Source of the DNA: Psammoneis japonica | Taxonomy: Eukaryota | Assembly (NCBI GenBank): GCA_008632985.1 | Contig: QPGO01000233.1 | Location: forward strand, 62,001 to 104,209 | Length of the DNA stretch: 42,209 nt | Direction of reading: 5' to 3' | Shown: piece by piece, positions 9,419 through 36,474 of the stretch | Numbering within the stretch: position 1 is the first letter of the stretch | Layout: every line of letters begins with the position of its first letter | Translations under genes and position numbers: made by a program | The notes under the pieces: model-generated | Databases searched by the model: none | Told to the model about the DNA's origin: nothing | What the model saw: the letters and a program-made list of their open reading frames with translations, nothing else

Positions 9419-10194
9419 GTTCGTTCAAGATTTATGCTGATTGAATTATGCCAATGTTAAGTATCGCGGATTCTGTTCGGATTCAGAATCTTTTTTCGCG
9501 CCAATGACTTTGACACGTAATCACTGGATGTCATTGAAGGGAAATTTGGAACTGCGAATGAGCTTTGAAGCGTGTAACGCCCGTCCTTAAATGAAAATAT
9601 CGGTTGAAACGCAAGTGGAACTTCATAGAATTCACTCCGATGTGGTACATACCTTACGCAGTTCTACGTAAATTCGAAAATTTGGGGAAAGCATGATGTC
9701 AGCTGGGGTCACAGCAAATACAAAACGCCGCGGTCGCGACGGAAGAAAACTTCATGACGAAGCCTGGGAGGCTTTGAGTGACCTTTCAAAGCGGATTTCG
9801 ACTCTTCCTTTCGATGCAATTTGTTAGTCGTCAAACGTGGATGAGAGGATCCATCCTGGTGGAGCTCGACGTGTCATGACATTCTGGATTTCAAATGCAT
9901 TGCTTGAAACAAGTTGAGTCCTGCGCGCGCACCCATGCAGCAGCGGAACAGTCTGATTGGAAATGCTTCGCAAATTCCTGGGATGACAAAATCATCACAA
10001 TCTTTGCTTTCTTCAATGAGCTTCCTGACCATGCAGGAGAAGCGGCATGTGTGTGTCATAAAATGGTGGACGGAGTGGTCAATTCCGTCGCCACTCTGAA
10101 TGAGCTCGCTGTCCATGCCTTCATGGCAGGCACCACAGAGGGAAAAACAAGATGTGAGAGAATTGTTTGTGCACGCTTGTGAAAAATGAAATGG

Positions 10195-10872
10195 TCAAGC
10201 TGCACTCAAGAGCCACGCGTCAAACTCCGATGTGACAATGCAGTCGTCATGAAGTGTTGTTGCAGGGCTTTCCCCACATTCGGGAAGATCAGACACCGAA
10301 GCAACTGCGCGAGGAGAAAGCAGATGGTCGCTCACACTTTCTCTACATGAGGTCACATTTCGAAACCTTTCAGCATTCAGCTGAGCTCCAAATGGATGAC
10401 AGGGTCTTGGCTTCAGTCTCACAAGCTTCAAAGCAGAGGGCTCCACTCCTTGTTTTGCTGACAATTTAAAACTCTTGGGATGGTCAATTTTCTGCCCTTG
10501 TTCGTTGAAGTTTGTGTTGGTGGCCAGCAAGGAAAATGTTTCTGTTCTCTTCCCTCTTTCGAGGTGACCTTGTCCTGCATGCAGATCAGAGCATAAAATG
10601 AAGACTGCAGTGGGACAGTCTCCAGAAAGATGCTTGGCTCTTCTGCTCCCCTCAAGTTCCAGAGGTGAAACAAGAACGAAGTCATGATGAACCTTGCTTT
10701 TCTTTGCAATCTTTTGCACTGGGGCCATGGAATCTTCAACATGATTTGGCAAAAACTCTGGATGGGGATCTTTGAAGTCTGCCATGACTTTCAGGTGGGA
10801 ATGCACGCCAAGTTTGATTTTCATTGTTTCGCACAAGCAAGGAGAAAATGGCTGTTGCCGGTCCTTTCTCAT
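10195..10872 (-). pseudogene. Tyr-free, probably hypermutated paralog of 8795-9418
   Basis: DFVLVSPLELEGSRRA vs DFVLITPQEIEQSKRA; KLVRLKPRPC vs KIIRLKPRPC. No Tyr in 225 aa. Lies within TpA-depleted DNA. Confidence 0.65.
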
Positions 10873-11356
10873 TTCTGTGTTGCTCAGATTGTGAGGGCAA
10901 ATTCACACAACACTCTGCCATGCAACCATTGTGCAGTTCAAGCTCAGCCCGGTCAGCGGTTTTCTTCTGCATGACTGACTTGCTTCGGATCATGTCCACG
11001 AGTGTCTTGGCAAGACAGACAGCACATGCTGAAATGTGCTGACAAACACCGGTGAAAAATGGCGGGAAATTTTTGGGTGTCAGGCCCTTGTGACGGATGT
11101 GACAAATGGCTGTGGATCTTCCTTGGCATCATCTGTGTCACAGTGAATGCCAAATGAATCACCACAAAGAAAAGTGCATCAGCCAATTGTCTCAAATCTT
11201 TTCTGACGCATGTCTGGGATGTGTGCAAGTTCTGCGCTGCTGCATGTGCCATTGGCAAAAACTGCGCTTTTGTCTGCCAAGACCTGCAAGATTGCAACAG
11301 ACCTTGGGTCTCTTTGGCAGCCCTGTGCTGCTGTGAGGAGTTGGAGAAGGTGATCA

Positions 11357-12390
11357 AAGCGTTTGTGAAACAGGTGCTGCTCTGGGTGTGGCCCCACTGG
11401 CCTGGAGTCTAGGCTGGTGAAACTGGAGCGACCAGAAATTGGGCTCCAGTGCAGGAGCAAAGTCTCTCACCTCAACACAAACAGCGGTGCAGTGCTTGGA
11501 GGCAAGATTGCTGCCGCAAATCTAAAACTCAAAGGAGGTCAAGGAAAGCAACCTGAAGAAGCTGCAATGGATCCGGTCCTCAGCAGAGAGAACACACCAC
11601 CTCTGCTGGAGACTTGCCAACTCTACATGCACGGTTTCCTTTGACAGTCCATTGCCACCACCTGTGCAATCCTTTCCTGATTTGTGAAATGGCTCAGTTT
11701 GTGTGGCACAAAACAGTGTGAGGTGTTGCAGCAGTGCAACAACCTGTTGCTGTGACAAGTCACAAGTCAGCCCTTCTCTTCATTTGTTCGTGGACATTGT
11801 CAATGAATTTCTGTGGTGGCTTTGTGCAGTGCTTTTGATGCAGTGTGTGCATCCCTGCGGCCAGTTGCAACTCGAATCACCCGTGCAGGTGATTCCCATT
11901 GCTTTGTTGCACAGACAACAAAAGGCCAATCCTTGCCATCGTTGCAGCACAACGGGTTTGTTCTTGATGTCTTCGTTGTCAGAATCAGAAGCAATGTTGA
12001 GGCAGTCTGTCACCATTTTTCTTTCCAGTCTTTGCTGACCTGTGCATTCTTGGCTGATCCCAGTCCCTCGTCTTCCCAGTGATCAACTGCAATTCATCCA
12101 TCAATGCTGCTGGGGTCAGATTTCTTGTTGAACACAAAGGCCATGCTTGCAGGTTGACTGTGAATGGGAGTTGGCACCCAAGCATTTGCAAGCACAATGA
12201 GAAGACGAAGGCTGACAATCACTTTCCACAAGAGCGACTCTTGACTCGGTGGCAGAATTGACACAACTTTGTTCATCAGTTTCTTTTGTTTTTTTTGAAG
12301 TCTTTGCTGCGAAGCAGTGGGACAATGTGTGCGCGGCAGAGCCAATGGATGTGGATCTTGTTGATTGTCACTTTGGAAGGATGCAAGTGC
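11357..12390 (+). repeat. About 1-kb direct duplicate of 18914-19948, TpA/CpG-mutated copy (includes a pseudogene of 19320-19841)
   Basis: Co-linear match, e.g. tgtgacaagtcacaagtcag at 11751 and 19311. Protein MVTDCLNIASD / NWPQGCTHCI here vs MVIDYLNIASD / NWPQGYAHYI in the other copy. Confidence 0.95.
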
Positions 12391-12504
12391 AACAGCATTT
12401 GACAAAGAATTGCATCAATCAACGAAGTGTTGCCACTTTGTTTTTTAGACTTTCTTTGACCAGTCAATGACAATCTCACCGCATGCCATGTTGTGTGCAT
12501 CAAT

Positions 12505-15028
12505 CGTGTGTGTCAGGGATGACTCAATGGAAATGTGTCAGTGGAGCCACCAAGCAATGCACATTTGCCACAACCCCAAATGTCGAACATGCACCATCCA
12601 ACTGTCTGGAACTTGCAGCCATGTGTTGATCTTCAGCCTTGAAAATGGCAAGTTTTTCGTGCAGTGATTTTTGCCAAATGTTGAGAAATCATGATGGCAA
12701 ACCTCTCTGCTGTGTCTCTGACTCTCTCAGAGCATTGCTGAGACAAGCTCACTCTCTTTGATTTGCAGTGAATGACACCTTTGAAAGCTTTTGCAATGAC
12801 CATGACAAGCATGGTTGCGCACTCTGATGCTGCTTGCCACAAACAAGACAGGAGCGCCCATCCCAATGTCAACCTTTCCAAGGAGAAAGGCTTTGTCCCA
12901 CTTGGATGAGACAACAAGAAGGTGAGTTGACCACATGTTGTGCAGCAGTTGTGCAGAATTGCTTTCGTGGCTTGCTCTCTCCATGTCTGTCTCTCTCTCT
13001 CTTCTGTTGTGTTGTCGCTGCATCTGGTTTCTTCTCATTGTCTCACCATCACGGTTTCATTTGATCTGCAATGACTGCATGCTCTTGAGTCATGTCTCAC
13101 TTGTTTTGACAATGAGGGGGCTCTTGACAAATGCTTCAATGGGCTCCATGGGCTGGAGATTCTTGAAGTCAAGGCCACGGAGAAAGGTCAAGCCACACAT
13201 CTGAATCTCCAAGAGAAAGAGGAGGGAGCATGCCCTGTCTGCTGGGGCGGCAACAAGCAGAAAGTTCTCAAGCATGCTCCTGTGAAAAATGTGAGTTGAT
13301 CATTCAGTGCAGTGCCTTTGAGTTTTGCTGCTTTGCTGTGATCGGATTGTCCTTGTCTCATCGTCGCTTCCATCAAATTTTGCCTTTCCCGCTGGTTCTC
13401 ATCTCATGCATCCCAAATGATGGGCCATTTGTGCCAGAGGTTCTTGAGCATAAGAACAAGGAGACGGTTCAAGCAGATGCTCCAAAGAAAGAGAAGTGAT
13501 CCAGTTTCAACAATGGCTGGGGAGAGCAAGAAGTGCTCGAGTGTTCTCCTCTAAAAAATGCAGGCAGTCATTCATTTGGCATGTCGACCACAGCATGAAA
13601 GTTTCAGATTGTTTGCTGTGATTGATTCTTTTCATCTCACCATTGTTTCAATCTTTTTGTCTTTTCCTGCAGGTCCTCGTGTCTTGCATCCCTGCTTTGG
13701 CCGCTGGATTTTCTGCACTCAAGCAGCGCAATGCAACTGTGCCAGAACGTGAGGACAAGGAGACGGCTCAAGCAGACACACCGATTCTTCAGAAGAAAGA
13801 GAAGTGACCCAGTTTCAACAATGGCTGGGGAGAGCAAGAAGCACTTGAGTGTTCTCCTCTAAAAAATGCAAGTCATTCATCTGGCACATCGACTGCAACA
13901 TGAAAGTTTCAGATTGTTTGCTGTCATCAATTCTTTTTGTCTCACCGTTGCTTCAATCTTTTTGTCTTTCCTGCAGGTCCTCACATCCTGCGTCCCTGAT
14001 TTGGCTGCTGAATTTTCTGCACTCAACTGGTGCAGTGCAACTGTGCCAAAACACAAGGACAGGGAGACAGCTCAAGCGGACACGCCGATTCTTCAGAAGA
14101 AAGAGAAGCGACCCAGTTTCGATGATGATGGCTGGGGAGAGCAAGGAGCACTCGAGTGTTCTCCTCTGTAAAAAATGCAAGTCATTCATCTGGCACATCA
14201 ACTGCAACATGAAAGTTTCAAATTGTTTGCTGTCATCAATTCTTTTTGTCGCACCATTGTTTCAATCTTTTTTGTCTTTTCCTGCAGGTCCTCGCATCCT
14301 GTGTCCCTGGTTGGGCCGCTGAATTTTCTGCACTCAACCGGCGCAATGCAGCTGACGTGTTCCAGCCCCAGGTGACGCACAAAACAACAATTGGATTTTG
14401 AGTGTAATTTATGTGTGTTTTAGTGCACACAGCATTTTAACAAAAATGCTTGGACGGATTGACTTTCATGGGCTTCTAGAGTGTGAACATTTAAACAGTT
14501 TTTTGAGGGGCACTCAAATCCTCATGGGACGTGTGTCACAAACTTCCTCAGTGGACTCAGCGCTGATTGCACGTCAGCAGATTTACACTGAGATTTTTTT
14601 GTAGGTAGAAAACCTGCCAAGTAGCATCGTAGAAAGACACATTTAGGTGACATCCAAATGACGGCAACATTTTCGCCGAAAATCATCCGTTGTGTTGCGA
14701 GTCTTTCAACGCAATGAAAAACATGGACAGCACAACAACAATGACATTGCAACACTCACACGAGTCTTGTTGGTGTGTTGCAAAACATTTATATTTGTTC
14801 AAATCTATACTTTTGGTGGTGAAAGTTCGATCGTAAGTTGGGGACCGCGCAAAAATCGCGCAAATGTCGTTTTTGTGCACGACTTGGTTCGCGTGCGGCT
14901 GGAACACGTCAACTGTGCCAGAACACAAGGACAAGGAGATGGCTCAGACGGACACTCCCATTCTTCAGAAGAAAGAGAAGTGACTCAGTTTCGACGACGG
15001 CTGGGGAGAGCAGGAAGTGCTCGAGCAC
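12505..15028 (+). pseudogene. Copy 1 of a gene made of tandem ~300-bp exon+intron modules (split by the MITE)
   Basis: Co-linear with 32830-34600. Repeated unit ...cctgcag|GTCCTC...GGCTGGGGAGAG..GAAGTGCTCGAG..TTCTCCTCT.AAAAAT|gcaagt. Many TGA stops at former CGA codons. Confidence 0.8.
14355..14909. mobile_element. Non-autonomous TIR element (MITE-like), about 555 bp
   Basis: Perfect TIRs ACGTGTTCCAGCC (14355-14367) / GGCTGGAACACGT (14897-14909), with weaker subterminal symmetry. Flanked by CAGCTG / CAACTG. It interrupts a repeat module whose intact copies read ...gcaatgcaactgtgccagaa. Confidence 0.85.
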
Positions 15029-15394: not shown

Positions 15395-16254
15395 ATGAAT
15401 AGCAATTGCAATGAGAACTTTGCACAGCTTGCAAGCGGTGTTGACCGAAACGAACCCAAGTGAGGTCGATGAAATCAACATCTTGGCTAAAGAAATCGAT
15501 GTCGAAGGTGTCCAGCAACTTGTTGCTCCCAAAGCTGTCTCTCCTTCATTTGGCTCACAATCACATTGGGGACGACGGTGTCAAGTGTTTGTCGAAAGTC
15601 ATCCCTTCTCTTTTTCTGCTGGAAACGCTCATCCTGGAAGAAAATGGCATTGGCCCTGAGGGTGTCAAGTCTTTGTGCGAAGTGCTGGAGCGGAACGCAA
15701 AAATCAAAGTTGTCAACCTTGAAGACAACGCACTCGGAGATCGAGGTGCAGAATGCATTGGAAAAATGTTGCGAAAAAATCGCAAACTGACAACGTTGTG
15801 GTTATCGAATTGTCGCATTGGACAAAAGGGAGCTAAAGCGTTGGCCAGTAGCGTGCGAGAAAACTCATCCATTGTTACTCTTCGTCTCGATGGCAACAAC
15901 ATTGGAGACGGTGGTGCAAGAGCCCTCGGACAAATGCTTTCGCAAAACGACACAATCGTACATGTGCGTGTGTCGCGTGCCTCTTTTGGAGATGAGGGGG
16001 AGGCGGCCCTAGTGGACGGCGTGAAGCAAAATAGGAAGGTTGATCCTTACTTTTTATGGTACGGCATTGATGAGGAGCTAGTTTCTGAGATTGAAAGGGA
16101 CCGTGAGCTGTTGCGGCGCATTTTGCTGTTGTTGCGTCGTGATTCCGTTAAGGATGGTATTTGGGCCAAGGTGTTGGCACGGGTTGGCGAAAACCACAAC
16201 CTCCGTTACCTTGTTATCAAGGCCAAACCAGAGATAGTCAGGAAACCAAAATGA
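15395..16254 (+). CDS. RNI-like/NLRC3-like leucine-rich-repeat protein; 5' part appears frameshifted
   Basis: 28-aa LRRs (L.L..N.IGD.G...L...L..N..L). C-terminal W.KVLARV...YLVIKAKP. LRR-like N-terminal pieces (QLASGVDRNEP; EVDEINIL..EIDVEGVQQL) lie in two other frames upstream. Confidence 0.8.
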
Positions 16255-18880: not shown

Positions 18881-18913
18881 CCGAATCAAGGGAGACTATG
18901 GTGCCAGGCTTCC

Positions 18914-19948
18914 GAAGCGTTCGTGAAACGGATGCTACTCTCTAGTAGGTATGGTCTACTAGTGAAAATAGAGCGACCCGAGATTGGGTTCCAACACAGG
19001 AGCAGAGTCTCTCGCCGCATCACAAACGGTGGCGCAGTGCTCGGAGGTAAGATTGCGACCGCAAATCTAAAACTCAAGGGACGTTACTAAAAATGGAAAG
19101 TCAAGGAAAGAGACCTGAAGAACCTACAACGGATCCGGTTCTCAGTAGAGAGAACACACCACCTCTACTGGAGACTCGCCAACTCCATATGTGCGGGTTC
19201 CTTTAACAGTCCATCACCACCACCTGTGCAATCCTTTCCTGATTTATAAAATGGTTTAGTTTGTGTAGCATAAAATAGTGAGATGGTGCATCAATGCAAC
19301 AACCTGTTACTGTGACAAGTCACAAGTCAGTCCTTCTCTTCGTTTGCTCGCGGATATGATCAATGAATTTCTGTGGTGGCTTTACGTGGTGCTTTTCGAT
19401 GTAGTGTGCGTATCCCTGCGGCCAGTTGTATTTCGAATCACCCATGCAGGTGTTCCCCAGCGCTTCGTCGCACAGACGACAAAAGGCCAATCCTCGCCAT
19501 CGTTGCAGCACAATGGGTCCGTTCTCAATACCTTCATTATCCGAAGCAATGTTGAGGTAGTCTATCACCATTTTTCTTTCTCTGGGATCCCAGTCTTTGT
19601 CGACCTGTGCGTTCTCGGCGGATCCCGGTCCCTCGTCTTCCCAATAACCAACCGCGATTCGTCCATCGATGCTGTTGGGATCAGATTTCTTGTTAAACAT
19701 AAATGCCATGCTTACAGGTTGGCTGTGAATGGGAGGTGACGTCCAAGTATTTGTAAGCACAATGAGAAGGCCGAGGCTAACAATCGCTTTCCACAAGAGC
19801 GTCTCGCGTCTCGGTGGCAGCACAGACACGATTTTGTTCATCAGTTTCTTTTGCTCTTTCTCACGTCTTTACCAGTGGGATGTTGCACGTTCGGCCGAGC
19901 CAATTGATGTGGAGCTCGTCGATTGCCACTTCGGAAGGATACAAGTGC
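18914..19948 (+). repeat. About 1-kb direct duplicate of 11357-12390, TpA-retaining copy
   Basis: Co-linear alignment by eye; TA and CG retained where the other copy has CA/TG. Confidence 0.95.
19320..19841 (-). CDS. Hypothetical protein with a CxxC + HxxxxH putative metal site (likely start MFNKK...)
   Basis: AVGYW...VIDYL...WRGLAFCRLC...G...YNWPQGYAHYIEKHHVKPPQKFI; intact frame, and a decayed duplicate exists in the window. Confidence 0.65.
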   Translation of the reverse strand: MNKIVSVLPPRRETLLWKAIVSLGLLIVLTNTWTSPPIHSQPVSMAFMFNKKSDPNSIDGRIAVGYWEDEGPGSAENAQVDKDWDPRERKMVIDYLNIASDNEGIENGPIVLQRWRGLAFCRLCDEALGNTCMGDSKYNWPQGYAHYIEKHHVKPPQKFIDHIREQTKRRTDL

Positions 19949-20787: not shown

Positions 20788-23060
20788 ATGGAACGTCGCC
20801 AATGGACAGAGCCGTATGGGCATATCATGGCCGCCCCATCTACGTTGGAGCGTATAGGACCTGGTTTGGTAGGTGGCGCTTTGCAAGGAGACCATCTATC
20901 TCAAGTAGCACTGACAGTCATTCTCCAGATGTTGGATGCTCGCTCCGATCAAGAGTTTCAGGAGTTTGCCTTTGATTTAGAAGACGGCGAAAACGACCAC
21001 TTGCTGAACCTTTCAGTTCGCCTTGCTGAGCGGCCGTACAGGCTTGCGTGCGAGGAATTCGATGAACCACAACTAGAGCGATTTTTTCGCTGCATATTCT
21101 TTGCCGCCTGTGCAAACGTTTTCCGCATGACGCACTTCCTTCCCTCATGCGTATCGGTTCTCTGGACGAAAAGGCGAGTGGCGGAGTGTTTCGGCATGGT
21201 GTGGCCCTGGGACTCCCTGTAGAAGGTGATCCTCGCCTTCTCTTGAAATGTCTACTGGAAGATTTTCGATTTCCTCGTCCAGCATCAACCTGACCACTTC
21301 ACTGGGTTGCTAGTTATGTATCTTCCGTCCCTGGCACCGGCTCTCAACCTGGCTCTCGACGACCCCCACGAAAGCTTTGAACTTCTCTATTTGCTTGCAG
21401 AATACTTCCTCAAGCAGAAGATGTACTTGTGCGTCGCAAACATTCCCGAGATTTTTCATGCAATCTCGCATCAGTACGAAGAAAACCAAGAAGCCCTCAA
21501 AGACGATGCCAGGAGAGTTAAGTCTGTATTGCTCGTGCAAAAGAAGCAATCGGGGATTTAATCGGTGCGCGCGACATCTATCGTTCATGTGGGGCCGATA
21601 GCCTTGCTGCGTCGCTCAAACCGTGCATATCAGGATCTCAAGTTTTTGTTTCTGAGGTACCCCTGGCGTCAGCAGTCACCGATGTAGGCAATCGAGCAAG
21701 CTAGAACTTCAAGCTTCTTGATCCAGTGTCAAATTCAATCGAAGATCGCCCTATTCCTGAAAACGGAAGCCGATGGAGAGTTGCGTAAAAGCCATCCCAG
21801 ATCCGACGTCTGAACGTTTTCGAATCCTAGTTGCCCCAAGATCTGATGATGGGGAGGAAAATGGAAGAATGGATGACATCAACGACATGGTGGGTGGCAT
21901 GTTTGGCAGGCAAGCAAGCGGTTCATCCGACCAGCGCCGAATCGAAAATGTCGAGCTGTGGCAGTACGGAGATCAAGGTTGGCACGAAACCAGGACTCGG
22001 GGAAGCATTCCAGATAGGTATGTGGTTTCTCGGATCGAAAGCCACTGTGTCATCTTTGAAGGCAGACTTGTTGTCTTAGGGGGGCAATCAGATTGGAAAC
22101 AGAGGTCTGTCTAGCACAAGTGGCCGGACTTCGGCCGGAGCTTTTGTGCTAGACTTTGAATCTCTTGAGTGGCTACGAATCCCACACCCTTTTGGACAGA
22201 CTCTTATGCTAACCGATCACCCCGGAATGTCGAATTCAGCCCCCCGCCACGTAAATGTTTCCCTTCCTCCATTTGTAGCTGCTTCTAGCATTGATATCAG
22301 GGGTCAAAAGATGGTGGCAATACTGGGCCACAAGAGCGAGGTCAATTCCAGAAGAAACAATGAGCTTGTTCCGAAGTACACCCTAAACTTGCTTGGGTTT
22401 TTACCCGGTGCTCTTCGGCCGGAGTGCTTTTGGATTCTGGATGTGGAAACCAAAGATCTAAGCGGGCATGTGGCAGCAATGACCGCTGCGACGTGCCATC
22501 AAGTTGGTCCTACGGTGGTTGTTGCGGGTCTTCCGTCTCCCATAGTCCAAACACTACAGCAGAATGGAGCTACTCGTATTGCCAACTCTTCGTTCTCTTC
22601 TTCGGAGCTTCCCGTGACAATGGAAGCTCTGGATGTAAGGAGCATGGAGTGGAGGGGCCTTAGAATTCATTACTCTGACTTGATTGGATGTGGAGAGACA
22701 CAGCTGAAACTGGTTCCGGGATCGAATCGAGACTGTTGCCATCTGCTGACAGTTTCCTCAGGATCCTTGAACATTTACAAGCTTTCGAATCTTAATTCCA
22801 TATCGGATTGTTTCACTGAACCTTTGACCAAACGGAAACGCCTGTCGAAGAAGAATACTGTGAGCTATCGGCTGGCAAAGGCGCAGAAGAACAAGGCCCG
22901 GTGTCTGCGAGAGTGTGGCTGCTGCCATATCTTTGAAACTGGTGGAAAGGTGTTCCAGTGCTGTGCTAAATGCCGAGAGTCCTTCTACTGTTCACGTTTC
23001 TGCCAAATGCGTCATTGGAAGGCTGAGCACAAGTCTACCTATTCTCCGTCAACTGCTTAG
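20788..23060 (+). pseudogene. Disrupted Kelch-like + C-terminal MYND zinc-finger gene (possibly two genes)
   Basis: 20788-21561 is one frame broken by TAG (21220) and TGA (21244). Kelch-like HCVIFEGRLVVLGG and LDFESLEW; TAG at 22112 plus a frame change. MYND CGCC...CAKCRESFYCSRFCQMRHWKAEHK with the last Cys replaced by Tyr. Confidence 0.7.
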
Positions 23061-23307
23061 CAAGTGCCTGGTTTCGTCACAATTGCTAAGAAGTTTCTGA
23101 TGAAAAGACGAAATGCATGGGTTTCAGTCACGCAAAATGGCTTTTTTATGGGTCGTTAAGTCTTACGGCCGCGGCTTTTCTCAGTTCTGGCCAGAAGCAT
23201 TTGTGAGTTCTTGTTAACTATTCCAACGTCGAAGCAATCAACGAAGACAGTGGTGGGAGTTGGACAAGGGAAAACAGATCTTTGCAGATTTCAACTGATG
23301 GCAACAG

Positions 23308-24168: not shown

Positions 24169-25499
24169 GGGATGTACTGTATATGTTTTAGCGACTGAGA
24201 GTAAGTGCTGCGGCGTCACCAGTTGAAAAATCGTCACTTTCTGCGTTCATCGTTTTCTGCAACTGAAACCGATACTGATGCTTTGAGTCTCTGCAAACCA
24301 AACCTACTCAGTGATAACTCTAGAGCCCTTCATGAGCCTTTCTAAGCAGCTGGAAGGATTGCAATTGGAACTCCGTTGTGTCACAAACGCAAGACGTGAT
24401 GCCCATGCCGACAGCAAAAAACGCAGCTATGGGTGAGTCGAATAAGTCGATTGCACTCAAACTTTCAAAACGGCATGTTGCACTTATGATGTGTCTCGAC
24501 ATTCAGAACATGGCAAACATCGTTGGGTCGACGTATCTTTCATGGGGGATCTTTTTCTACCGTTGTGTTATAAAGAGGTTGATACATTGGTTTGGTTTCC
24601 GGGGGGCTTCGGTTGCGACACACGGCATGATAAACAAACTGTTGCGTGCCTCGACTCCTCGTGACTCAACACTCAACTGCGCGGGACGTTTAACACGTAA
24701 CACTTGAATGGTCGACAACGCTGCGGCGGCAAGTTCTTTCTGTTTTTCTCATTTTATATCGTTTTCTTACTCACTAAAGATCATTGTTGCGTTTTGTTAC
24801 AGCTTGAAAGGTGGATGGATCGTCTCCTGCGGTCGATCATGGTGTCTGTTGTGTTGGCATGTTTTTCAAGTCGTTGGTGCCAAAGCGCATCCGTTTAGGA
24901 GCTTTGTGCTTCATCCCACTCTACATCCTTTGGTGAAGATGAGGCGGTGGCTCAAGCAGTCGAGGTCTCTTGCGCGTAGCGTGAGTCCCTGGTTTCGGCG
25001 TTTGATTTTCTTTGTTGTTCGCACTTCGGCACACGTCCTCTAACACGGCAAGGGAAATGAACGACGTTTTGGACCGGTGGTTCTTAATTCTTGCTATCGG
25101 TTCCTGCTCATATTCTCGTGTATTTGCTTCTGGCGGGCTTTTTCACTGTTCAAACGATTGTGGACGTGCTGAACGTAGGGGAGTTGGGCGGCGCGAGCTG
25201 CTGTCACGGTCGCTCCTTTTATCATCGCTTGCGGAATGGAAAGGCTAATTTCGACCGCTTTGAGCTTGCTAACGATTTATTTCAACTTCCGCAGTGACAC
25301 TTTCTTCCCACCATTCAACGTGATCTGGACACATTTCAACACGTTTTGCTAGTGTTGCATGTCCGAAGCGACAGCAGAACTGTCGAGAAGACCGTACAGC
25401 GGCATTTTCTTCAGCATCCTTGAGCAATGAAGCAGCAGATAATGTATATAGATGACTCATGGTTTGTCACTGTTCTTTATAGTGTTTGTTGACCCGTCG

Positions 25500-26800
25500 C
25501 GTTGGACAGGCAGAGCAACACCCAACTCAGGATTTGTCACTCCATGACTCAGATGATCCAGAATCTGCAACTTCAGAGACTCCAGAGGGAGCAGAGCTTG
25601 ATGAGCTCAGCAATGACAGTGACGATGAATTGCCCTTGTTGATCATCATGACTCACATGAAGATCTAGATGTTGGTTTTGATGAAGCAGAGCCTGTGCCA
25701 CCAGCTCCAAATGCTGCTGCTGCTCCCACTCGGACTTGCAATGACCACACTGTCAAGAAACCAGATTGCATCTTCATTGAGTCCATGAAGGCCAAAATCT
25801 GCACCCCACCCAACAAGTCACACTGGCTGCACATGAAAATTCCAAATGCTTTGTCAGGTCAGAGACATTGAACAAGCAGTTTTTGATGACACTGCATTGG
25901 GAAAGCATCACAAATGCCCTCAGATCAAAAGACTTGCGTGCTGTGATCAAAATCTTTGACAAAAATGCTGGTCAAGAATGTGGGCGATGCACTCAAAGAA
26001 ATCCAACTTGGGAAGAAGGAACAAGTGAGCCTGATTGCACAGCCCATCTCCACCAGGCTTGTGACATCAAAGTTGACTCCCTTGCCACCAAGATTGGATG
26101 AATGTGCTCCCACCCACTTGGGCCTTTGCCCTGATTGATTCATCCAAAAATGTGATGCCAATTTTTTGTCTGTGGAGACAAGGAGCAGCTGGAAGTCATT
26201 GATCATCTGATGCTTCAGCTCTGGTTGTAAATCAGACAGCAGCCCAGCTTGTGGTCATGCTGTCTCAAATTTTGGAGATCTCTGCCAAGCAAGTCAATCA
26301 TGTCACTGCTTTTGCACATGCTCCCATCAGCACGGATCCCAAATGGGGTGCCATGATGCCCAAAGAGTGGGGGTGCACTGGCGCATGTGTGCAAGGATGC
26401 TCCAAGCCTGACAAAGCACTGAAGCTCAAGAAGACCATTTGCAATCTCAAACAAGGACCGTGCAATTTTTTTCCTGCAGCTGAAATCAAAGCTTGAAGCT
26501 GGGCTTCAATCGCAAAAGGACGTGGGCTCATGCCTCTTTGTGTCTGACAAGGTCAGAGTGCATCAACAAGGAGGTCAAAAAGTTCAAAATCAGTGGTGGT
26601 GTGTCCTTCAAAAACTCAGATTCTGCTGCATTTTCTTTTGGGCATCCATGTCAATTGTGATGCCAACAATGGCTCAACCAAGCTGACCCAGTGTGCCTGG
26701 TGGCCAAGTGCGCCATTGATGCTCTCAATGCAGGTGATCTTCCAAAGGCCCCAACACCTGCACCAGCGGCTCTGTTGGTCTGCGTTGGTCAAGGATGCTG
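25500..26800 (+). mobile_element. Ty1/Copia (CoDi-like) reverse-transcriptase remnant 1
   Basis: WMNVLPPTWAF (26096), CGDK, KQVNHVTAFAHAPI and KALKLKKTICNLKQGPCNFF (consensus LKKSLYGLKQSPRNFF); many frameshifts. Confidence 0.85.
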
Positions 26801-27699
26801 ATGGAGACCCACAGAATGGAGCCCCCAGTTGTGCCAGTGTGGCTGGCATGCTCCAGTGGTGCCTCTGAGGCGCCCCAGGCCCCCAACGTTGTCACCTGTG
26901 CAGCTGCTGGCCCAGCAGCCAGGTTTGTTTTTGGCCCAAGCTGCTCACATGAGCTGGCCCTCATGAGGATCAGCAAACTCATCAGGGGCTCACTTGAGGA
27001 AGAAGGTTCAGCCCCCAAGCCATCTGGGGTCTTCAGCGCCAATTTTTTGTCAGTGCTGCTCAGAGTTTGCCGGGGCTGTGCCCTCACGAAGACAAGCAAG
27101 ACCAGGCTTGTGTCAAGAGTCAATCAGGACTTGTGGCCTGCATTTCAAACTGTCCTGTCATTGAGTCTGGCAAGCTTGCACTCAAGATTGCTCTCTCCAC
27201 CATGGAGGCAGAGTGCCGCCCCCTCCCCAGTTGTGCCAAAGCCGCCCTTCCCTCCCTTTCTCTGCACCACGCAAGCCACTTCTCAAGGTGCTGGAGCTGG
27301 TCTGGGAGCTGTCGAGACCACCAAGACTGCCTTGAGAGAGGGCAATGCTGGAGCTTTAATTTTGGCCAATGTGGAACCTGGACAAATTGCACCAAGGTTG
27401 TCCCAGCTCTGCTCTGTGGTTGGCAGCTTCTTTGTTCAAGAGGCAGTGTCATTGCAGTGCGAGCTCATGCATGCTCATGCACACAAAAATTTCGCGCTTG
27501 CACCAAATTGTTTTCCCATGGGAAAGTTGTGCTGGAACGCTTGCAGACAGGAACGGTCAGAAAGAAGATCAAGCAGTCTACGTGGTGCTGAGTGCATTGA
27601 AAGCAAACTGTTGGGTTGTTGTTGTTTGTTTGTCATCCCATTGTTTGCCAAGCAACCAGCCCTCTGGAGGCAGCAAGACAACCAAGCAAACACACCATC

Positions 27700-28830
27700 A
27701 TGGACGACGGCAAGCACAAGCACACGACCAGACTGGGGCGTCGCGCTTGGACTCCTCTGCTCTGGGATGTCTGTCTCACTCAGACTCTGCTCTGGGATGT
27801 CTTGCTTGGACTGGACAATGACTCACCCACACTGCTTTCTCACTCCATCTGATGACAGGATGTCAACCTGTTGGATGGATTGCTCTGAAAACACAGGAGG
27901 AAGTCGTCACTGATGCCATTCAGTTTGTGGAAGAAATCATCACCACCAATGATTGCTCAGACAAAGAACTTGCAGAGTTCTTTTCAGAGTGTTCTCAGCA
28001 CCATCATGGCTGCAACAAATGCCAGCAAGCATTCTGTTGAGCACACGTGGCATCCAAACAGTCCAACAATTTGGAACTTGCACAGGACATCCAAATGTGG
28101 TGTGAAAGCCACCCTGAATTCATGTCGTGGCACCAGGTGTGTCAAGGATCCTACACGGCGAACCAAGAGCTTCCCAAGTGGGACAATCATGAATCGGTGA
28201 AAGCAGATGGAGTGGTCAATCACAAGCCTGCGCCGTCCGTGGAATCATGGCTGCTCCTTCTCATCAAGCAAAGCCACACCTGGCTGGAGAACAAGAAAAA
28301 AGGATGGGAGGAAGGCCTTCCTCATTGTGGTGCACCAATCTCAGACTTTTTCAACAAGCATTGCATGACAGCTGGTTCCTTTGTCACACGGGAAGTGCGC
28401 TCCAGGATTGAGACGGCCCTCAAGAGCGCTCCGGAGCAAGAGGAGCTTGAATTTTGCGTCCCCAGTGACACCACTGCCAACAATGACCCCTCATCCCACA
28501 GTGCGGCCATGTTGCCTGCTGAGTCCCCCGCAGTTGTTCCCATTGCACAAGATTTGCGTGGACGAGGTTCAAGACATGAGTCAAGCTAAGATCGGTTTGC
28601 CATTTTTGGTGAGCACAAATCACCCTGATTTTCTTTTTCTGGCTGGTGACCCTGCTCAGGCTGTGGCCCAGGGTGTTGACTTTTGTTTCAAGGTGGTCCG
28701 TTCTGTCATTCACATGATTTTTGAAGGCAGGGAGAAGATTGAGCATTGGCAAAAACTCTGCCACAACTTTTGCAGCCATGAGGGGATGTCCTGAAAGTGG
28801 CCAATTCTGCACTGGGCTGTCTTCTCAAGG
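27700..28830 (+). pseudogene. UvrD-like SF1 helicase fragment (TRANK1/LBA1-like)
   Basis: ICVDEVQD (Walker B), FLAGDPAQAVAQGVDFCF, LCHNFCSHEG (consensus L..NYRSH.G); frameshifted. Confidence 0.7.
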
Positions 28831-29104
28831 CCTTTCCCACAGCAGCATTGAAGCTGGAGCATGATGCGGGACTTGTTCAGGGTGAGCTTTAAGTGTGCAT
28901 CAAACTGTTGCCTTTTGCCATTCTTGAAAGCAAGCATCACTTGTCCATCTGTTGGCTTGTTTTTCCTTGTTTTGTTTGAAAGGACTCCAGCCAGGACTGC
29001 TGACCAGTGACCACAAGGAGCTGCCCGAGCTTCTTTGCATTGCAGACACAAAAAAAGCAAAAAGAATGCTCTTCAAACCCTTGGACCACTTCAAACAGTG
29101 TTGA

Positions 29105-29190
29105 ATGTTGGCATCTGCTTGAGCCGCCCAGCAAGCTGTTGGCACCTGCTCAAGCCACCTGGCAAGCTGTTGGCATCTGTTTGAGCCACC
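29105..29190. repeat. About 31-bp tandem repeat, roughly 3 copies
   Basis: tgttggca(t/c)ctg...(g/a)agcc..c..gcaagc repeated. Confidence 0.7.
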
Positions 29191-29929
29191 TTGCATGATG
29201 CAGCGTGCACTTGAGCCGTCTTGTTTGAAATGGCATGAACTTGAGCTGCACCACATGATGTGACATTTTCCTGTGGAAACATGGACAAAAAATCAAAGGA
29301 AAACAAGAAGTTGAGAAAACTAAAAAATGCATTGAATCAACAGATTAAATCAAATGCTTTGGAGTGATGGGATCATCTTGCTGAGAATGTGAGAGAATGA
29401 AGAAACAAATTTCGGCTCCAGAGAATGTTTTCATTTGTTTTCATCATGAGCCAGTTTTTGGGTTGACAACAGCAGGTCCAATGGCATCAACACAAAATTG
29501 ACAATGCTCATTTTCAGCCATGATGACCATTGTTGCAGGTGCTTTGTGTTGGTGATGTTTGTGGTGGTGGGAGAAACTGGAAACTGGCTGTTTCCGTCCA
29601 CACACATGCTGCTCACTGCAATGCTGTGCAATCACCTGTGCTCCTGATGTGAGCACTGGTGCTAACTGTGATGCTGTGCAAGTGCCTGTGCTCCTGATGT
29701 GAGCACCGGTGCTGCACTGTGCCCCAACTGGGCTCTGTTTGTTTTGTGCTTTGCAGTGTGAATTTGAAATTTTTGACATTTTGGCCTTTTTCTGTTGTTT
29801 TCGCTTGACGTTTTGGCAAGCGTCCCGCAGTGCTGCAGCGTGCACATGTGTTTTCAAAATCACAACAATCAAAGCCAGACATCTCTGCAAAACACTGTTT
29901 TTAAAATCACAGACTCAAGTGGTGGATTG

Positions 29930-31180
29930 ACAGCATGTGGAGGATGGCATGGAAGATGCACTTGGTGGCGGAGCACAAGGTGATTCAAGTCATTTGAAGC
30001 ACAATGTGGTGATTCGATTGCAGCAACAAAGCCTTGCTCCTGCCCAAGAACTCACATGGGTGTTGCACCACCACTTCACATGCACGTCAAAAAAAGACTG
30101 CAGTTGGACATCATTCTCTGGAGGAGTGTCACTTCAGCATTGCAGCAACGGCAATCATTTGCAGCATTTTGGTCACTGCAAGTGTGGCAAAAGAAGACAG
30201 TGCTGTCTTTTTAACAGAAATGCCAGACAGATCTAGATTGCAACAAGATGATTGTGTGTGCAGAGTTCTTGCCGGTCAAACAGTCATGGCATTGCAGCAC
30301 AAGGACAAAAATGCATTGGAGCTGATCACACAGTTGCACAAAGACAGAAACAACAGAGGCTTCCTGAAGGACTGGCAACATTTTCATGCTTGAAATGGAC
30401 CTCTGCTTTCCCCAGTCATCACACCAAATGTGTCTGCAGACACTTGTCCAAGATGCCACATGGTGCCCTGCATGTGCGCACTGAGGAACCCTGCTGTTTG
30501 GACCTTCCCAAGCCTGTGTGCAACTGGGCTCAAACCATGAGTGGTGGTGATGCAGAGGAACTCCTCAACCAAGACACACCCAAGCCACTTGGCAGTTTGG
30601 TTGCCATGACTCATCATGTTGATGCAAACTTGTTCCATTGCATGCTTGCCAGTGGGTGTTTCATTGTGGGCATCATTCATTTCCTCAACAAGTTTCTGGC
30701 TGGCCAATGGTTGTTCTCCAAGAAATGAGCCACAGCCAAGACTGCAACACATGGATCTGAGTTTGTTGCTGCCAGGACCTGTGTTGAACAGATCATTGAT
30801 CTGCGCATCACTTTGCGTCACCTCAGTGTCCTGATCCATGACACCTGTCACATGTTCGGGGATGACAAGTCAGTTGTGGACAGTGCTGCCATCCTGCACT
30901 CCAAGCTGCACAAGCAACACACACCACCCTCTTGTTCCTTTGCATGTGCAAAGCCATTGCCTCCAGCTTCCTTGAGCTTCATTTCATTGAAGGCTCGCAC
31001 AACCCAGCTGATGTCCTCAGCAAGCAGTGGGGTTGCCCCCAGATCTGGAGCCTCCTCTGCCCCCCCCCCCCCCCCCTCATGTTTTGGAACTTTGATCCCA
31101 AGGCCTTTGTCCAATGTCCAATCTGATGTCAAATCTGTCACTGCAGACTCTTCAAGCAAGAAACTGGGGAGTGACAGGAT
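29930..31180 (+). mobile_element. Ty1/Copia (CoDi-like) RT-RNase H remnant 2 with 3' polypurine tract
   Basis: HVRTEEP, PKPLG..V.MTHHVDANLFHCML, FSKK*ATAKTATHGSEFVAARTCVEQIIDLRITLRHL, MFGDDKSVVDSA, HSKLHKQH, NPADVLSKQWG. GGGGAGTGACA at about 31166. Confidence 0.9.
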
Positions 31181-31299
31181 TTGACCAAGACTTCAGCTTG
31201 TGCACATGATTCTGTGTGCTCTTGGTTCCATGCGTGGTGTGCAATGCAGTTTGCTTTGAAGCCACTCAGCTCACAAGAACAACAACAGCAGTGCTGACA

Positions 31300-32540
31300 T
31301 CATGCCACACATCTTTCAGCTCCTGCAGTGGTCTTTGCATGGAGACTCATCTGCCATTTAGACTGCCGCAAGGAGCCATTGTTTTCTTCCATCCATTTCC
31401 TCCTCAATTGCTGTCAAACTGTTTTGAGCGAGTCAAAAAGATTGGCCCCAACCAATCAAAAAAGTTGGTTTCTGGCTCTGCAGGAAATGGGGATTGTGCA
31501 GTGGCAAAAAATGGACAGAAATCCTGCAGCTGGGAAAGCCAAGTGTGCTGCTGTTGGGGACAATGTGACCTGGGGCACAGTGCTGCAAGATCAACCTTGC
31601 AATGCCCAACAACAGCTCTTGAAGTCTTGCCCTGGGCCCATGAGAGCTGTGTCCTCAGCTTGCAGCCATCAGCTTGGCCAGCGCCACAATGGCACACTTT
31701 TGGAATGAAATGACTTGGAAATTAAAGTTTGTTGTTGCTTCATTTTGTCAACAAGCACAAAATTGTTCTGGAGCACTTGTTGAGAACACAGGATTCTTGT
31801 TGTCAAGCACAGATCAGCTCTGAACAAGAACAACAAAATTTTCCAGACAATGAAGACATTGGGGGACAGAGCAACCAACCAAGCAAACTCTGGAGTGAGG
31901 CAAAAGAAAACAGGGATGGCAATGCTGGTTTGCAGCTGCCACAACTTTGCAAAGTTGACAAAGTCACAAATGACAACAAAGTTGACAATGTTGCCAAAAT
32001 TGCCAAACTTGACAAAGTCGCCCAAATCAGCACAGTTGCCAAAGTCAGCAAACTTGACAAAATTGCCAAACTTGACAAAGTTGTGCCTGCAAAAGGTTTT
32101 CTCTCTTCTGCACATGAGACAAAGTGCTTGATGATTCACACTTGGGCGAATGTTGGCTCAAATGTTGACACAAAAATGTCTGCAATTGCTTCATTCTTGT
32201 CAACACACACAAAACCAATCCCCCATTCCTTGTTGGCACAAGGAATGCATGCATTGCAGATCCAAACATGGGTGGAGCATTTTGACTGTGCCCAGTTTTG
32301 CATTGTTGGTTTGGATGAAATGTCCAGCAATCCCTCCACAGCACTTTGGAACGGGTCTTGGATCATTTGGACAATCCTCCTCGTGTTGTTGACACTCCCC
32401 CAACTTTGGCCCAAACAATCAATGGGACTGTGGTTTGGATGCCATTGTTGACCAGGACACACTGGCTCTTTTGGCCTGGTTTTGTGAGTGGCGCAATGAG
32501 ATTCTCCAATTTTTGTCGAGCTTGTTGCAAATGTTTTGTG
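31300..32540 (+). pseudogene. Sulfotransferase-domain gene remnant with an internal low-complexity insert
   Basis: PMRAVSSACSH (cf. P..RAYSAY.H), SLLAQGMHALQIQTWVEHFD.AQF.IV..DEM..NP, ERVLDHL, WFCEWRNE.L. Confidence 0.55.
31950..32085. repeat. 9/18-bp period tandem repeat (aaa-ntt-gmc; KVDK/KIAK/KLDK)
   Basis: aaagttgacaaagtc...aaaattgccaaacttgacaaagt repeated. Confidence 0.75.
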
Positions 32541-32829
32541 CCTTTAGAATGGCGATTGTCACCCCAGCGTTGTGCAACTCTGTGCAGGAGGATCACAACA
32601 GCCAAATCAGTTGCTTTGTCATTGGCTCTCCACTGAAGCCAACTTCCACAACTCTGCTGGAGACACACCTCAAGAACAATGAGGAGCAGCTTTTGTTTGT
32701 TGGTTTTTGAAAGCGGCACTTCTGGCAAGTTACTTCGAAGTAGAAGAGATTGTGAGTTGAAAAAACGCTGTGTTATGATGTGCCGCATGCAAAGTAGAAG
32801 CATTCTGTCACACACACCAACTGGAGTGT

Positions 32830-34600
32830 TTTGTGTTAGAGATGACTCAACGGAAAGGAATCGCCGGAATCACTGAACAATGCACATTTCCCACGACCCC
32901 AAATGTCGAACATACGAAGTGTACACACAGCAATTACACAGACTCATGTCACAGTCTCTCCAGTCTTGAACATTGCATGCTTTTCGGTTCGACAGCGGTT
33001 TTGCCAAAAACGTTGACAAAAATGAACCATGACGGCAAACCTGTCCCCTGCGTCTCTGACTCTCTTGTGGCATCGCTGAAACAAGCTCACTTTCTTTGAT
33101 TCGCATTGAACGACACCTTTGAAAGCTTTTACGATGACCATGACAAGCATGGTTGCGCACTCTGATGCTGCTTGCCACAAACAAGACCCGGACGCCCATC
33201 CCGAGGTCAACCTTGCCGAAGAGCAAGGCTTTGTCTCGCTTGGACGAGACAAAAAGGAGGTGAGTTGACTGCGCATTGTGTTTCAGTCGTGCAGTTTACT
33301 GCAATCGCTTTCGTGACTTGCTCTCTCTCTGTCGCTCTCTCTTCTGTTGTGCTGTCGCTGCATCTGGTTTCTTCTCATTGTCTCACCATTTCGGTTTCAT
33401 TTGATCTACAACGACTGCAGGCTCTCGAGTCATGTCTCACTTGTTTCAACAACGAGTGGACTCTCGATGAACGCTTTGACGGGCTCTGTGGGCTGGAGAT
33501 TCTTGAAATCGAGGCCATGGAGAAAGGTCAAGCCGCACCTCTGAATCTCCAAGAGAAAGAGGAGGGAGCACGCCCTGTCTCCTGGGGTGGCGACGAGCAG
33601 AAAGTTCTCGAGCACTCTCCTGTGAAAAATGTGAGTTGATCATTCAGCGCATTGCCTTTGAGTCTCACGGCTTTGCTGTGATTAGATTGTCCTCATCTCA
33701 CTGTCGCTTCCATCGAATTGCCTTTCCGCAGGTTCTCGCATCATGCATCCCAGGTGATGGGCCCTTTGCGCCAGAGATTCTTGAATGCGAGAACAACGAG
33801 ACTGCTCAAGCGCATGCTCCAAAGAAAATGAAGCGACCCAGTTTTGATGACGGCTGGGGAGAGCCAGAAGTGCTCGAGCATTCTCCTCTCAAAAATGCAA
33901 GTCATTCATTCGACATGTTGTTTGCCAGCATGCCATGTGTTTGGGGACTTGTTGTCTCATCGTCGTTCGAATTTATGTGTGTTTTCCTGCAGGTCCTCGT
34001 GTCATGCGTCCCTGCTTTGGCTGCTGAATTTTCTGCACTCAACCGGCGTAATGCAACTGTGTCGGAACGCGAGGACAAGGAGACAGCTCAGGCGGACATG
34101 CCAATTCTCCAGAAGAAAGAGAAGCAACCCAGTTTCAACGACGGCTGGGGAGAGCCAGAAGTGCTCGAGCATTCTCCTCTCAAAAATGCAAGTCATTCAT
34201 TTGGCATGTCATCTACAGCATGAAAGTTTCAGATTGTTTGCTGTCATTCAGGCTTGTTGTCTCACCCTTGTTTCAATCTTTTTGTCTTTTCTACAGGTCC
34301 TCGCATCTTGCGTCCCTGCTTTGGCCGCTGAATTTTCTGCACTCAACCGGCGCAGTGCGACTGTGCCAGAACGCAAGGACAAAGAGACGGCTGAAGCAGA
34401 CACGCCGATTCTTCAGAAGGAGGAAAAGCAATCCAGTTTTGATGGCTGGGGAGAGCCAGAAGTGCTCGAGCATTCTCCTCTCAAAAATGTAAGTCATTCA
34501 TTCGGCATGTCATCTACAGCATGAAAGTTTCAGATTTTTTGCTGAGTTTGGGGAGTTCTCATTGTCATTTCAATCCATGTGTTTTCCCCTGCAGGTCCTC
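32830..34600 (+). pseudogene. Copy 2 of the exon-module gene (phase-0 exons 33421-33630, 33732-33896, 33993-34187, 34297-34488)
   Basis: All four exon lengths are multiples of 3. Acceptors are YAG after pyrimidine tracts. Donors GTGAGT (33260, 33631), GCAAGT (33897, 34188), GTAAGT (34489). Exon peptide VLAS.VPALAAEFSALNRR...DGWGEPEVLEHSPLKN. Confidence 0.82.
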
Positions 34601-34814
34601 CCGATCTTGCCTTGGGCAGTGGCTCCCAAAAGGGCACGAGTGAGTGACGAGGCATCCTTGCCAAGATGGTTGTCGTTCCCTTTCTTGAAAAAGGTCAGAT
34701 CCAGCAGTTGCTTGTTTGCAGGATGCTCGTCCAGGTTGTCATTCTTGAGAGCACAGACACTGGTGCCCAATGCACATTTCTCAAATGCCAAACAGATGTT
34801 GCTGGTCTTGAGTG

Positions 34815-35075
34815 CACGCATCTGATGGTCTGATGTGAGCACCTTGTGGAATGAAATGCACTCCACTGAGCTCTTGCCAGCCTCTGCCATGACTTGGCAA
34901 AACAACTGTGCAGATTCATGGGGAGCGGATCTGCCCCTTTGCGAATGATGCACGCATCTGATGGTGTCTGATGTGAGCACCTTGTGGAATGAAATGCACT
35001 CCACTGAGCTCTTGCCAGCCTCTGCCATGACTTGGCAAAACAACTGCAGATTCATGGGGAGTGGATCTGCCCCTT
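34815..35075. repeat. About 136-bp tandem duplication
   Basis: cacgcatctgatgg...gattcatggggag.ggatctgcccc at 34815 and 34951. Confidence 0.9.
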
Positions 35076-36474
35076 AGCAAATGGCACTGCTGTGAACTTG
35101 ATGGTTTGTGCACCCCTTCAAGAGGCAATTGCCTTGGCAGAACAATCCAAAGCAGGTCCAATCTCTGCATTTCCAATGGATGCAACAGTGACGCTGAGCA
35201 ATTCACCAGATTTGCACCACTCTCCATGGGCACAGGAGCTGCTTTGAAAGGGGCCATGCCAGTTTTGATAATTCTTTTGCCAGTCTTCTCCACTTGCTGG
35301 GTGGCATTGGCATTGATGGCCATTGTTTGTTTGTCCAGCTTGCTGTCCAAAAGGGTGGCCATTCGATCTTCCGCCGACTGCTTGGCTTTTCATGCCGCAT
35401 TTGATGCCTCCAACTGTGCTTGCAACTCAAGCATTTTTTCATTGTTCCTTTCTTTGCCTTGTCAGCAGCAATCTTGGCTTTTGATGTTGCATTTGATGCC
35501 TCCAGCTGTGCTCACAACTCTGCAATCTCTTGTTGTTGTTGTTCCAGCTTTGCATTTTGCTCCTTCATTTTTTGATCTTTTTCATTTGATCCAAGCGCAG
35601 GTCATCAACAAGATCTTTTGTAAAACTGGTTTTGTCTTTGATCACACTGACTTGGATTTGTCATGCAGCTGCATCATCAGCTGCTGCCATGACCTTGCTT
35701 TCTTCCATGTGAGCCCAATGATCTGCAGACACAAAAAAGGACCATGCATCATGCTGGGGGGTGGCGGTCCACGATGGCCACCTTCGAGTTCCCCTTTGAC
35801 ATCATCTTTGAAAGTTCTGATGGGCACAAGGTGTTGATGGTAGGAGGTGTCACAGCAGACATGGGTGGTGGCTTGCTGCTGTCATTGGCACTGGCAATGT
35901 TGCTGCTGTGCACGGAAGCTGCGGGTGCTTGCAGGGCATGGTCGATCTTCCATTGCATGTGTCTGGACCGTGTGGAAGCAAAGAGCTCACAGATGGGCTT
36001 TGGGCAAGGGACATTGCACAATTCTGAAAGACCATCCTTGATCTCTTGGACAGACCATTCCGTCTTTTGGGGGTTCTTGTGCATGACAGCTGAAATGGCT
36101 TGGTGCGTGTCGCGAGGCTCCAACTCAAACTTGCCCGATGGCTTGCGAATGAAATTTGATCCATCAAAGCTGAAATGATTCTTCTTGACTGATCACAAAC
36201 TCTAACCAATCACTGTTGCATCCTTTGGTCTGAAAGTAGATGGTGTTTTGCTCGACAGATCGAGATCCAGCTTTGGCCAAACAGAAGCGCCAGGCGTCGT
36301 GCATTCGCTGATCTCTCACAACTTGCTGCAATCAACGCATCGACGGTGCGCATGACACATTGCGTGCTGCCAACAGTGGTGACGTCCCTGTCGGGTGCCA
36401 GTTCTGCACGACAAACGCGGCGATCGGAATCCTTCGTCATGGTGGATTTGTTGTTGCTCGTTGTGTTTTTTTTT

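Follow-up and report, generated by a model that had tools for sequence, protein, structure and literature searches.

In a stretch of 42,209 nucleotides from Psammoneis japonica (the window; part of contig C235 in an assembly of 91 Mb and 597 contigs), three blocks have lost nearly all of their TpA dinucleotides (TA), and the few TAs that survive share their flanking bases. The compact resistant motif is TYTA or its complement TARA (Y, pyrimidine; R, purine), which holds 38 of 52 surviving TAs and 272 of 950 ordinary TAs in the window. Copies of repeated DNA show that TA turns into TG or CA at a rate that depends on these flanks, and since the loss rates alone predict the fractions of survivors, context-dependent loss suffices to explain the survivor bias.

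Two-state segmentation of the window placed the TA-depleted blocks at 2079–4152, 9720–14404, and 25481–36474, with 9, 13, and 40 TAs, respectively. CpG is lowered in them and CA and TG are increased; GC content is equal inside (0.48–0.50) and outside (0.47–0.49), and the TC dinucleotide is not depleted. TpA is down to about one tenth in depleted DNA, both here and in the sampled stretches described below. A first-pass annotation of this DNA had assigned the shared context of residual TAs to 9850–36474. That span does hold two depleted blocks, and it is not one domain: 11 kb of ordinary DNA separates the block at 9720–14404 from that at 25481–36474. The individual residual TAs listed in that annotation were recovered, all 22 positions having a TCTA/TAGA or TTTA/TAAA within 0–3 bases. 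Its estimate by eye, that more than three quarters of survivors fit TNTA/TANA (T at −2 or A at +2) when about half would be expected, was also borne out: 42 of the 52 survivors in the two blocks within the span (81%) carried such a base, compared with 454 of 950 unaffected TAs of the window (48%; Fisher p = 2.7e-6). The CA and TG sites in the same depleted blocks did not share the bias (1499 of 3297; p = 3e-7 against the TAs).

We extended the comparison to 55 hand-picked stretches of 10 kb (550 kb), of which six came from the same contig, two from a contig that was known to carry a paralog, and the rest were taken blind to content. After trimming 100 bases from the block edges, 535,789 bases were scored, 259,555 of them depleted and 276,234 unaffected, so that depleted DNA made up about half of the sample. 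Survivor flanks again differed from those of unaffected TAs, T at −2 or A at +2 being present in 851 of 1053 TAs of depleted blocks and in 5129 of 10,965 unaffected TAs. TYTA/TARA was found in 765 of 1053 and 2878 of 10,965. As in the window, CA/TG sites of the depleted blocks lacked this flank bias. The TNTA/TANA rule of the first-pass annotation was incomplete.

With every site of the sample counted on both strands, the enrichment of a base in survivors over ordinary TAs was, at −1, 2.08 for T, 1.34 for C, and 0.26 for A, and, at −2, 1.94 for T, 0.77 for C, and 0.49 for A, so that T is favoured at both positions, C only at −1, and A at neither. T at −2 had an odds ratio of 3.1 when the −1 base was C, 3.0 when it was T, 2.0 when it was G, and 0.2 when it was A, the last because TATA contains another target. 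The −1 and −2 positions act independently, and the ±1 bases explain more than the ±2 bases: the cross-validated log-likelihood gain was 475 for −1 alone, 286 for −2 alone, and 664 for both. TCTA weighs about as much as TTTA, so the flank effect goes beyond mere runs of T and A. Enrichment rose steadily with the number of pyrimidines before plus purines after the TA (0.0, 0.21, 0.72, 2.0, and 5.8 for zero to four). A flank code common to CpG loss was considered and rejected; the flank biases of CpG survivors were merely 0.84–1.29-fold.

The survivors are real sequence and not assembly errors. An identical 18-mer on a second contig (C256) matched 33 of the 40 TAs in 25481–36474, and of eight survivors covered by two contigs of run X1, which is possibly from the same sample as the assembly, seven were TA and the eighth (10344) was CA. 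The window also keeps the unconverted partner of a depleted sequence. The plus-strand stretch 18954–19948 has 37 TAs and aligns at 81% with 11407–12390 (plus strand), a converted copy with 3 TAs remaining; of 33 aligned TAs, 31 are TG or CA in the converted copy. Among them is TTTATAAA at 19243–19250, which reads TTTGTGAA in the depleted duplicate, in agreement with the earlier suggestion that protection is partial. In the same pair, besides the change of CG to TG or CA, eight CpG sites have AG or CT as their converted counterpart; these hint at C>A change at CpG in old blocks, which young elements do not show (7/4648). Over 39 alignments of unconverted with converted copies, 323 of 402 TAs had become CA or TG, and survival increased with the number of protective ±2 bases, from 5/188 with none to 12/176 with one and 8/38 with two.

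Site rates were obtained from two young transposon families whose conversion is still under way, one a 390-bp inverted-repeat element and the other a 555-bp element with a copy in the window at 14354–14910. The rate set comprised 84 copies (54 + 30) and 83 of 84 sites, after removal of reference copies, same-locus duplicates, and copies of the first family below 88% identity. Relative rates ranged from 0 to 8.3. Outside TATA runs, the median rate was 1.97, 0.50, and 0.05 with zero, one, and two protective ±2 bases (32, 28, and 3 sites), whereas sites in TATA runs, which the TNTA/TANA rule includes, were among the fastest. A survival score derived genome-wide correlated with the transposon rates (Spearman −0.79). 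We then trained a strand model on the transposon sites alone, with one exposure fitted to the overall survival of 10%. It predicted a TNTA/TANA fraction among survivors of 0.808 (observed 0.808), a YTAR fraction of 0.49 (observed 0.519), and a TYTA/TARA fraction of 0.653 (observed 0.726), and told survivors from ordinary TAs in the window with an area under the curve of 0.82. The proposal of the first-pass annotation that the residual context implies sequence specificity therefore holds, in the form of context-dependent mutability. There was no trend of rate with distance from the element ends (p = 0.30 and 0.67). Site-wise cross-validation worsened when flanks ±4 and ±5 were added; the genome-wide fit has a small effect at −5.

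The process is recent, since copies 98–99.7% identical already bear TA changes, and TA loss runs ahead of CpG loss: in the matched part of the 555-bp family TAs fall from 54 to 5 per copy, and CpG merely from about 14 to 9. The 390-bp element (C16:100864-101253) has inverted repeats, 4-bp target duplications, and 1524 first-look candidate copies. On both flanks, 25 of its 30 youngest fetched copies were TA-poor (<10 TA per 500 bases), so the element inserts or is kept mostly within already converted blocks. Two young copies in TA-rich flanks (L082 and L084) had three and two TA changes, as many as copies with depleted surroundings; the element may be a target in its own right or may have inherited these changes, and two copies are too few to decide. 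We also compared the window with the near-identical contig C256 as a source of polarized new mutations; the differences were mostly indels, with few TA differences in both directions, and were not used for rates.

The change is a nearly pure transition and is specific for TA. Per site and copy in the two families, A>G occurred at 1075/6362 for TA, 55/7276 for AA, 24/4344 for CA, and 11/4204 for GA, that is, at a rate of 0.169 for TA and 0.003–0.008 in the other contexts (22 times AA, 30–65 times CA and GA). Transversions at TA amounted to 37/6420 (0.6%), and C>T at CpG to 113/4648. Both strands are hit: TG and CA outcomes were mixed binomially within each copy, without overdispersion (p = 0.80 and 0.86). 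This coin-toss mixture indicates repeated single hits on chromosomal DNA and not one pass over RNA or cDNA.

Weights were fitted for flank positions counted from the TA and written on the strand whose A changes. They were, at −2, A 1.47, G 1.56, C 0.76, and T 0.58; at −1, A 1.74 and T 0.67; at +1, T 2.29, C 1.69, G 0.61, and A 0.42; and at +2, C 2.0 and A 0.56. A pyrimidine at +1 marks the changing strand at 27 of 32 sites, although T alone at +1 is not directional (15 of 26), and at 26 of 31 sites the strand with T at +3 is the one spared. No strand bias goes with A at +2 (14 of 30 sites). The strand symmetry that had been proposed for the flanking preference is therefore present at ±2 and absent at ±1, where the preference is directional. 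The ±2 pair slows both strands alike, which may be one duplex-level effect or two equal strand effects.

Taken as a whole, these results are probably best explained by a host process of flank-dependent TpA conversion in repeats, with a TadA/ADAT-type adenine deaminase as its likeliest agent. Acting on chromosomal repeat and mobile DNA, such a process would turn TpA into TpG or CpA, one strand per hit and in many rounds, until about 90% of the TAs were lost. The flanks alter the rate by more than an order of magnitude, so that the last TAs are those that are slow on both strands. On the strand whose A becomes G (in parentheses), the preferred target is 5'-RAT(A)YC-3' and the slowest 5'-TYT(A)RA-3'; statistically, the strand that changes is set by a pyrimidine directly following the A, and a T:A pair at a distance of two bases retards both strands equally. 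The deaminase may be recruited to silenced DNA and would turn A into inosine, which replication would then fix as G, and the ±2 pair would gate access to the duplex through its shape or opening. The CpG loss in the same blocks would be a separate, slower, and almost flank-blind process, probably the deamination of 5-methylcytosine. We found nine PF00383 (deaminase family) matches in the genome, among them one TadA-like, at 133 bits and under the cut-off of 150, and one ADAT2-like; the TadA-like protein is encoded on C38, and ADAT2/3-like proteins on C26 and C17.

A stronger version of this proposal, which we regard as possible but rather doubtful, would have a dedicated natural adenine editor of double-stranded chromosomal DNA serve as a genome defence whose direction is the reverse of that in repeat-induced point mutation (RIP). 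It would be guided to mobile and repeated DNA, would recognize a site of six bases that is nearly a palindrome, favouring GATATC/RATAYC and refusing TTTAAA/TCTAGA, and would have rewritten about half of the genome. A 491-aa frame on the minus strand of C79 (319–1791 of its fetched stretch) combines a cytidine/guanine-deaminase-like domain with a 2-oxoglutarate dioxygenase; a thymine dioxygenase is among the best relatives of solved structure for the latter (E 1e-20), and the fusion probably serves nucleobase salvage.

Several observations weigh against the adenine deaminase explanation or the data on which it was built. TadA enzymes need a single-stranded substrate, and the converted copies show no strand clustering of changes. 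The TadA-like and ADAT2-like genes are to be expected in any eukaryote, where housekeeping roles suffice for them, and they prove nothing. In sequence, A>G on one strand and T>C on the other are an identical event. TAs adjoining CpG are slow (median 0.58 vs 1.80 for 14 and 69 sites, p = 0.008), unlike the tRNA substrate of TadA, which is UACG; methylated neighbours might shield TAs flanked by CG. Two sites with the equal hexamer CGTACT differ sevenfold in rate (0.64 vs 4.49), so a factor beyond the flanks within 3 bases matters. The copies were ranked by their similarity to the queries, and two of those queries were themselves partly converted; the shared ancestry of the copies may also inflate differences between sites. 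In the least biased and youngest cohort, 29 copies that resemble a near-intact query at 98–99.7%, TNTA/TANA taken literally did not reach significance (20 hits at 15 sites vs 37 at 14, p = 0.21), since the rule takes in the hot sites AATATA and TATATC; TYTA/TARA was significant there (3 hits at 10 sites vs 54 at 19, p = 0.006). Finally, 25 of the 46 survivors in the pair data stand opposite a partner TA and 21 do not, 10 of these being opposite CA or TG; some survivors are therefore new, or the partner was altered.

The last observation favours the view that residual TAs are unprotected, being newly made in T/A-rich contexts, assembly errors, or the outcome of composition or GC-biased gene conversion, and the many single-base indels between near-identical contigs of the assembly also point that way. 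We nevertheless consider this very improbable, and as the main cause it is refuted by the site rates in the transposon copies and by the survivor fractions that those rates predict. Ancestral TAs in protective contexts were lost more slowly in the aligned copies, the survivors were confirmed on other contigs as given above, and neither the equal GC content nor the unbiased CA/TG flanks would be expected from composition or conversion. Generic GC-biased conversion, which the first-pass annotation had judged the poorer fit, is excluded by the equal GC content together with the TA-specific spectrum. Error-prone synthesis by polymerase eta in repeats (WA motif) has a similarly slight chance. Polymerase eta favours A>G at TA over AA, and AA is the next most changed context here; its spectra, however, have substantial AA changes and transversions, and the TA:AA ratio of 22:1, with 0.6% transversions at TA, largely refutes it. 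The comparison with ADAR and polymerase eta suggested in the first-pass annotation gave neither signature, as these are generally described.

A lesion on T is an unlikely but more serious alternative, since T oxidation yields the same sequence outcome as A deamination. A TET/JBP-type dioxygenase would oxidize the T of TpA in repeats to 5-hydroxymethyluracil and then 5-formyluracil, giving TA>CA, and the flank code, read on the strand of that T as 5'-GR(T)ATY-3', would be the preference of this dioxygenase. Dinoflagellate TET/JBP enzymes are described as making 5-hydroxymethyluracil, enriched in repeats, that replaces T preferentially in TA and TC (PMC11572971). Phage T-dioxygenases are sequence-specific, and one prefers NTG and then NTA (PMC13229309), according to the part of that paper available. 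In the accessible text of a further source, 5-formyluracil can pair with G, which leads to AT>GC transitions, and also with C (PMC3084264), yet TA transversions are rare here. No report of TA erasure in dinoflagellates was found in the available portions of the sources, and the order T>C>G>A at +1 agrees with a known adenine deaminase logo. A PF12851 search was blank, a result that is uninformative.

Less probable again is a two-step or repair route, by which TpA adenines in silenced DNA would first undergo methylation or damage and later be deaminated or copied wrongly, or their repair would fail, the flank code being DNA shape (YY-TA-RR vs RR-TA-YY) and not an enzyme pocket. The steady rise of survival with pyrimidines before and purines after the TA is consistent with it, as is the equal ±2 effect on both strands. 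Strict TA specificity and pure transitions come more easily to an enzyme, however; at −2 it is T that is enriched and not C, and duplex stability explains little. As a driver of its own, duplex stability was rejected, being weak at ±2 (rho 0.26, p = 0.02) and without effect at ±3 or ±5, with textbook nearest-neighbour energies. The shape account overlaps with the adenine deaminase explanation, which also requires a gate at the level of the duplex. Two other causes were discarded. Ultraviolet photoproducts or psoralen-type damage at TpA, by their generally known features, do not suit the spared dipyrimidine contexts and absent transversions. Editing of retroelement RNA or cDNA (ADAR/APOBEC type) changes a single strand of any one copy and concerns elements that pass through RNA, whereas here two DNA elements with inverted repeats have TG and CA mixed in each of their copies.

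In the window, duplicated and transposon DNA lies inside the depleted blocks, and intact genes that match Pfam lie outside. The block at 9720–14404 (13 TA in 4685 bases, CpG also reduced) consists of decayed duplicated and tandem-repeat DNA according to self-alignments. The block at 25481–36474 (40 TA in about 11 kb) has an assembly gap at its end, and its part at about 32700–34520 has been converted less far. The third block (2079–4152), outside the span of the first-pass annotation, has TNTA/TANA at eight of its nine TAs. Within the first of these, 12509–14232 (plus strand; 4 TA, 31 CG) is a converted copy of a stretch repeated at 81% identity at 32832–34544 (plus strand), the less converted partner with 14 TA and 82 CG; the tandem units of about 305 bp in 12509–14232 bear several recurring survivors (CTCTAAA). 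At the edge of the same block, 14354–14910 (plus strand) is a partly converted copy of the 555-bp transposon, a non-coding element with terminal inverted repeats that resembles a miniature inverted-repeat transposable element (MITE). It has 16 TAs in its first 475 bases, where the least changed copies have 49–54, and its CpG count is unaltered.

Leucine-rich-repeat frames occur at 15445–16254 and 23527–24246, in unaffected or lightly affected DNA, a MYND match at 22080–23060, and a SET match at 36383–38203. At 38271–40671 a spermine synthase frame and an S-adenosylmethionine decarboxylase frame adjoin; the copy on C256 is about 95% identical, with many base differences. Identity to C256 is 99.4% over 23789–31853, and divergence jumps across the N gap at 36475–36861.

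A TpA hypermutation process is already known from one preprint; the present analysis adds a ±2 term that acts independently and is symmetric between the strands, and the prediction of survivors from loss rates. A quantitative, strand-resolved flank code is a test of any enzyme, because a candidate must rank RATAYC above TYTARA, and if the adenine editor is true the code becomes an assay for finding it. For base-editing tools, too, an enzyme able to edit A within duplex DNA would be of interest. The fast and slow sites kept by repeat copies also allow the dating of copies.

RIP in ascomycete fungi resembles the process described here, in the accounts available, in its focus on repeats and in its dinucleotide-specific transitions within bounded blocks. 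RIP changes C:G to T:A, mostly at CpA, and creates TpA. It runs in the opposite direction, as TpA is removed here and CpA and TpG are made, and its signature was not found. The marking of dinoflagellate DNA with 5-hydroxymethyluracil by TET/JBP enzymes is likewise a base change targeted to repeats with a preference for TA, and on the dinoflagellate side also for TC (PMC11572971); it is a modification, for which the available text reports no mutation, and TC is not depleted here.

The closest parallel comes from Bigelowiella natans, where integrated viral DNA undergoes TpA hypermutation (Mettrop et al., bioRxiv 10.64898/2026.01.13.699255); it is the only case of natural, targeted in vivo A-to-G editing of nuclear DNA that our literature search returned, most subscription papers lying outside that search. 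As far as the preprint describes it, both cases consist of nearly pure TpA>TpG/CpA transitions (here at 323 of 402 paired TAs) that keep to mobile or foreign DNA (here the bounded, segmented regions of mobile and repeated DNA) and leave TpA-poor clusters rich in CpA and TpG. The Bigelowiella process was seen in mutation-accumulation lines, in two viral inserts, with a rate per generation about 1000-fold higher and activity in some lines only, and an ADAT-type deaminase was proposed, untested, as its cause (10.64898/2026.01.13.699255); here the process is deduced from copies, affects about half of the sampled DNA, with MITEs that are not viral and duplicated stretches among it, and has removed about 90% of TAs. 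The main text of the preprint, searched as a whole, states no rule on flanks other than TpA itself and says nothing of diatoms, while its supplements list mutations and could hold such a rule. Scoring the 231 de novo Bigelowiella mutations by the flank code could ask whether two distant algae share one machine.

The deaminases derived from TadA are another close parallel. In the accessible parts of the sources, guide-independent edits by the base editor ABE8e show a TAT motif with T over C at +1, ABE7.10 prefers YAY (PMC11983105), and a preference of TadA-derived deaminases for TA is described elsewhere as well (PMC13225742). These are engineered, non-natural enzymes with a strong, though not an absolute, 5' preference, and no report of a ±2 rule was found for them in the portions available. 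The comparison with TadA that the first-pass annotation had called for gave the TAY preference, with TAT above TAC (+1 weights T 2.29 and C 1.69; 27 of 32 sites). A>G change on DNA, T before the A, a pyrimidine after it, and T preferred over C are thus common to ABE7.10, ABE8e (PMC11983105, PMC13225742), and the process in P. japonica, and by this analogy the conversion appears to work like TadA-type adenine deamination.

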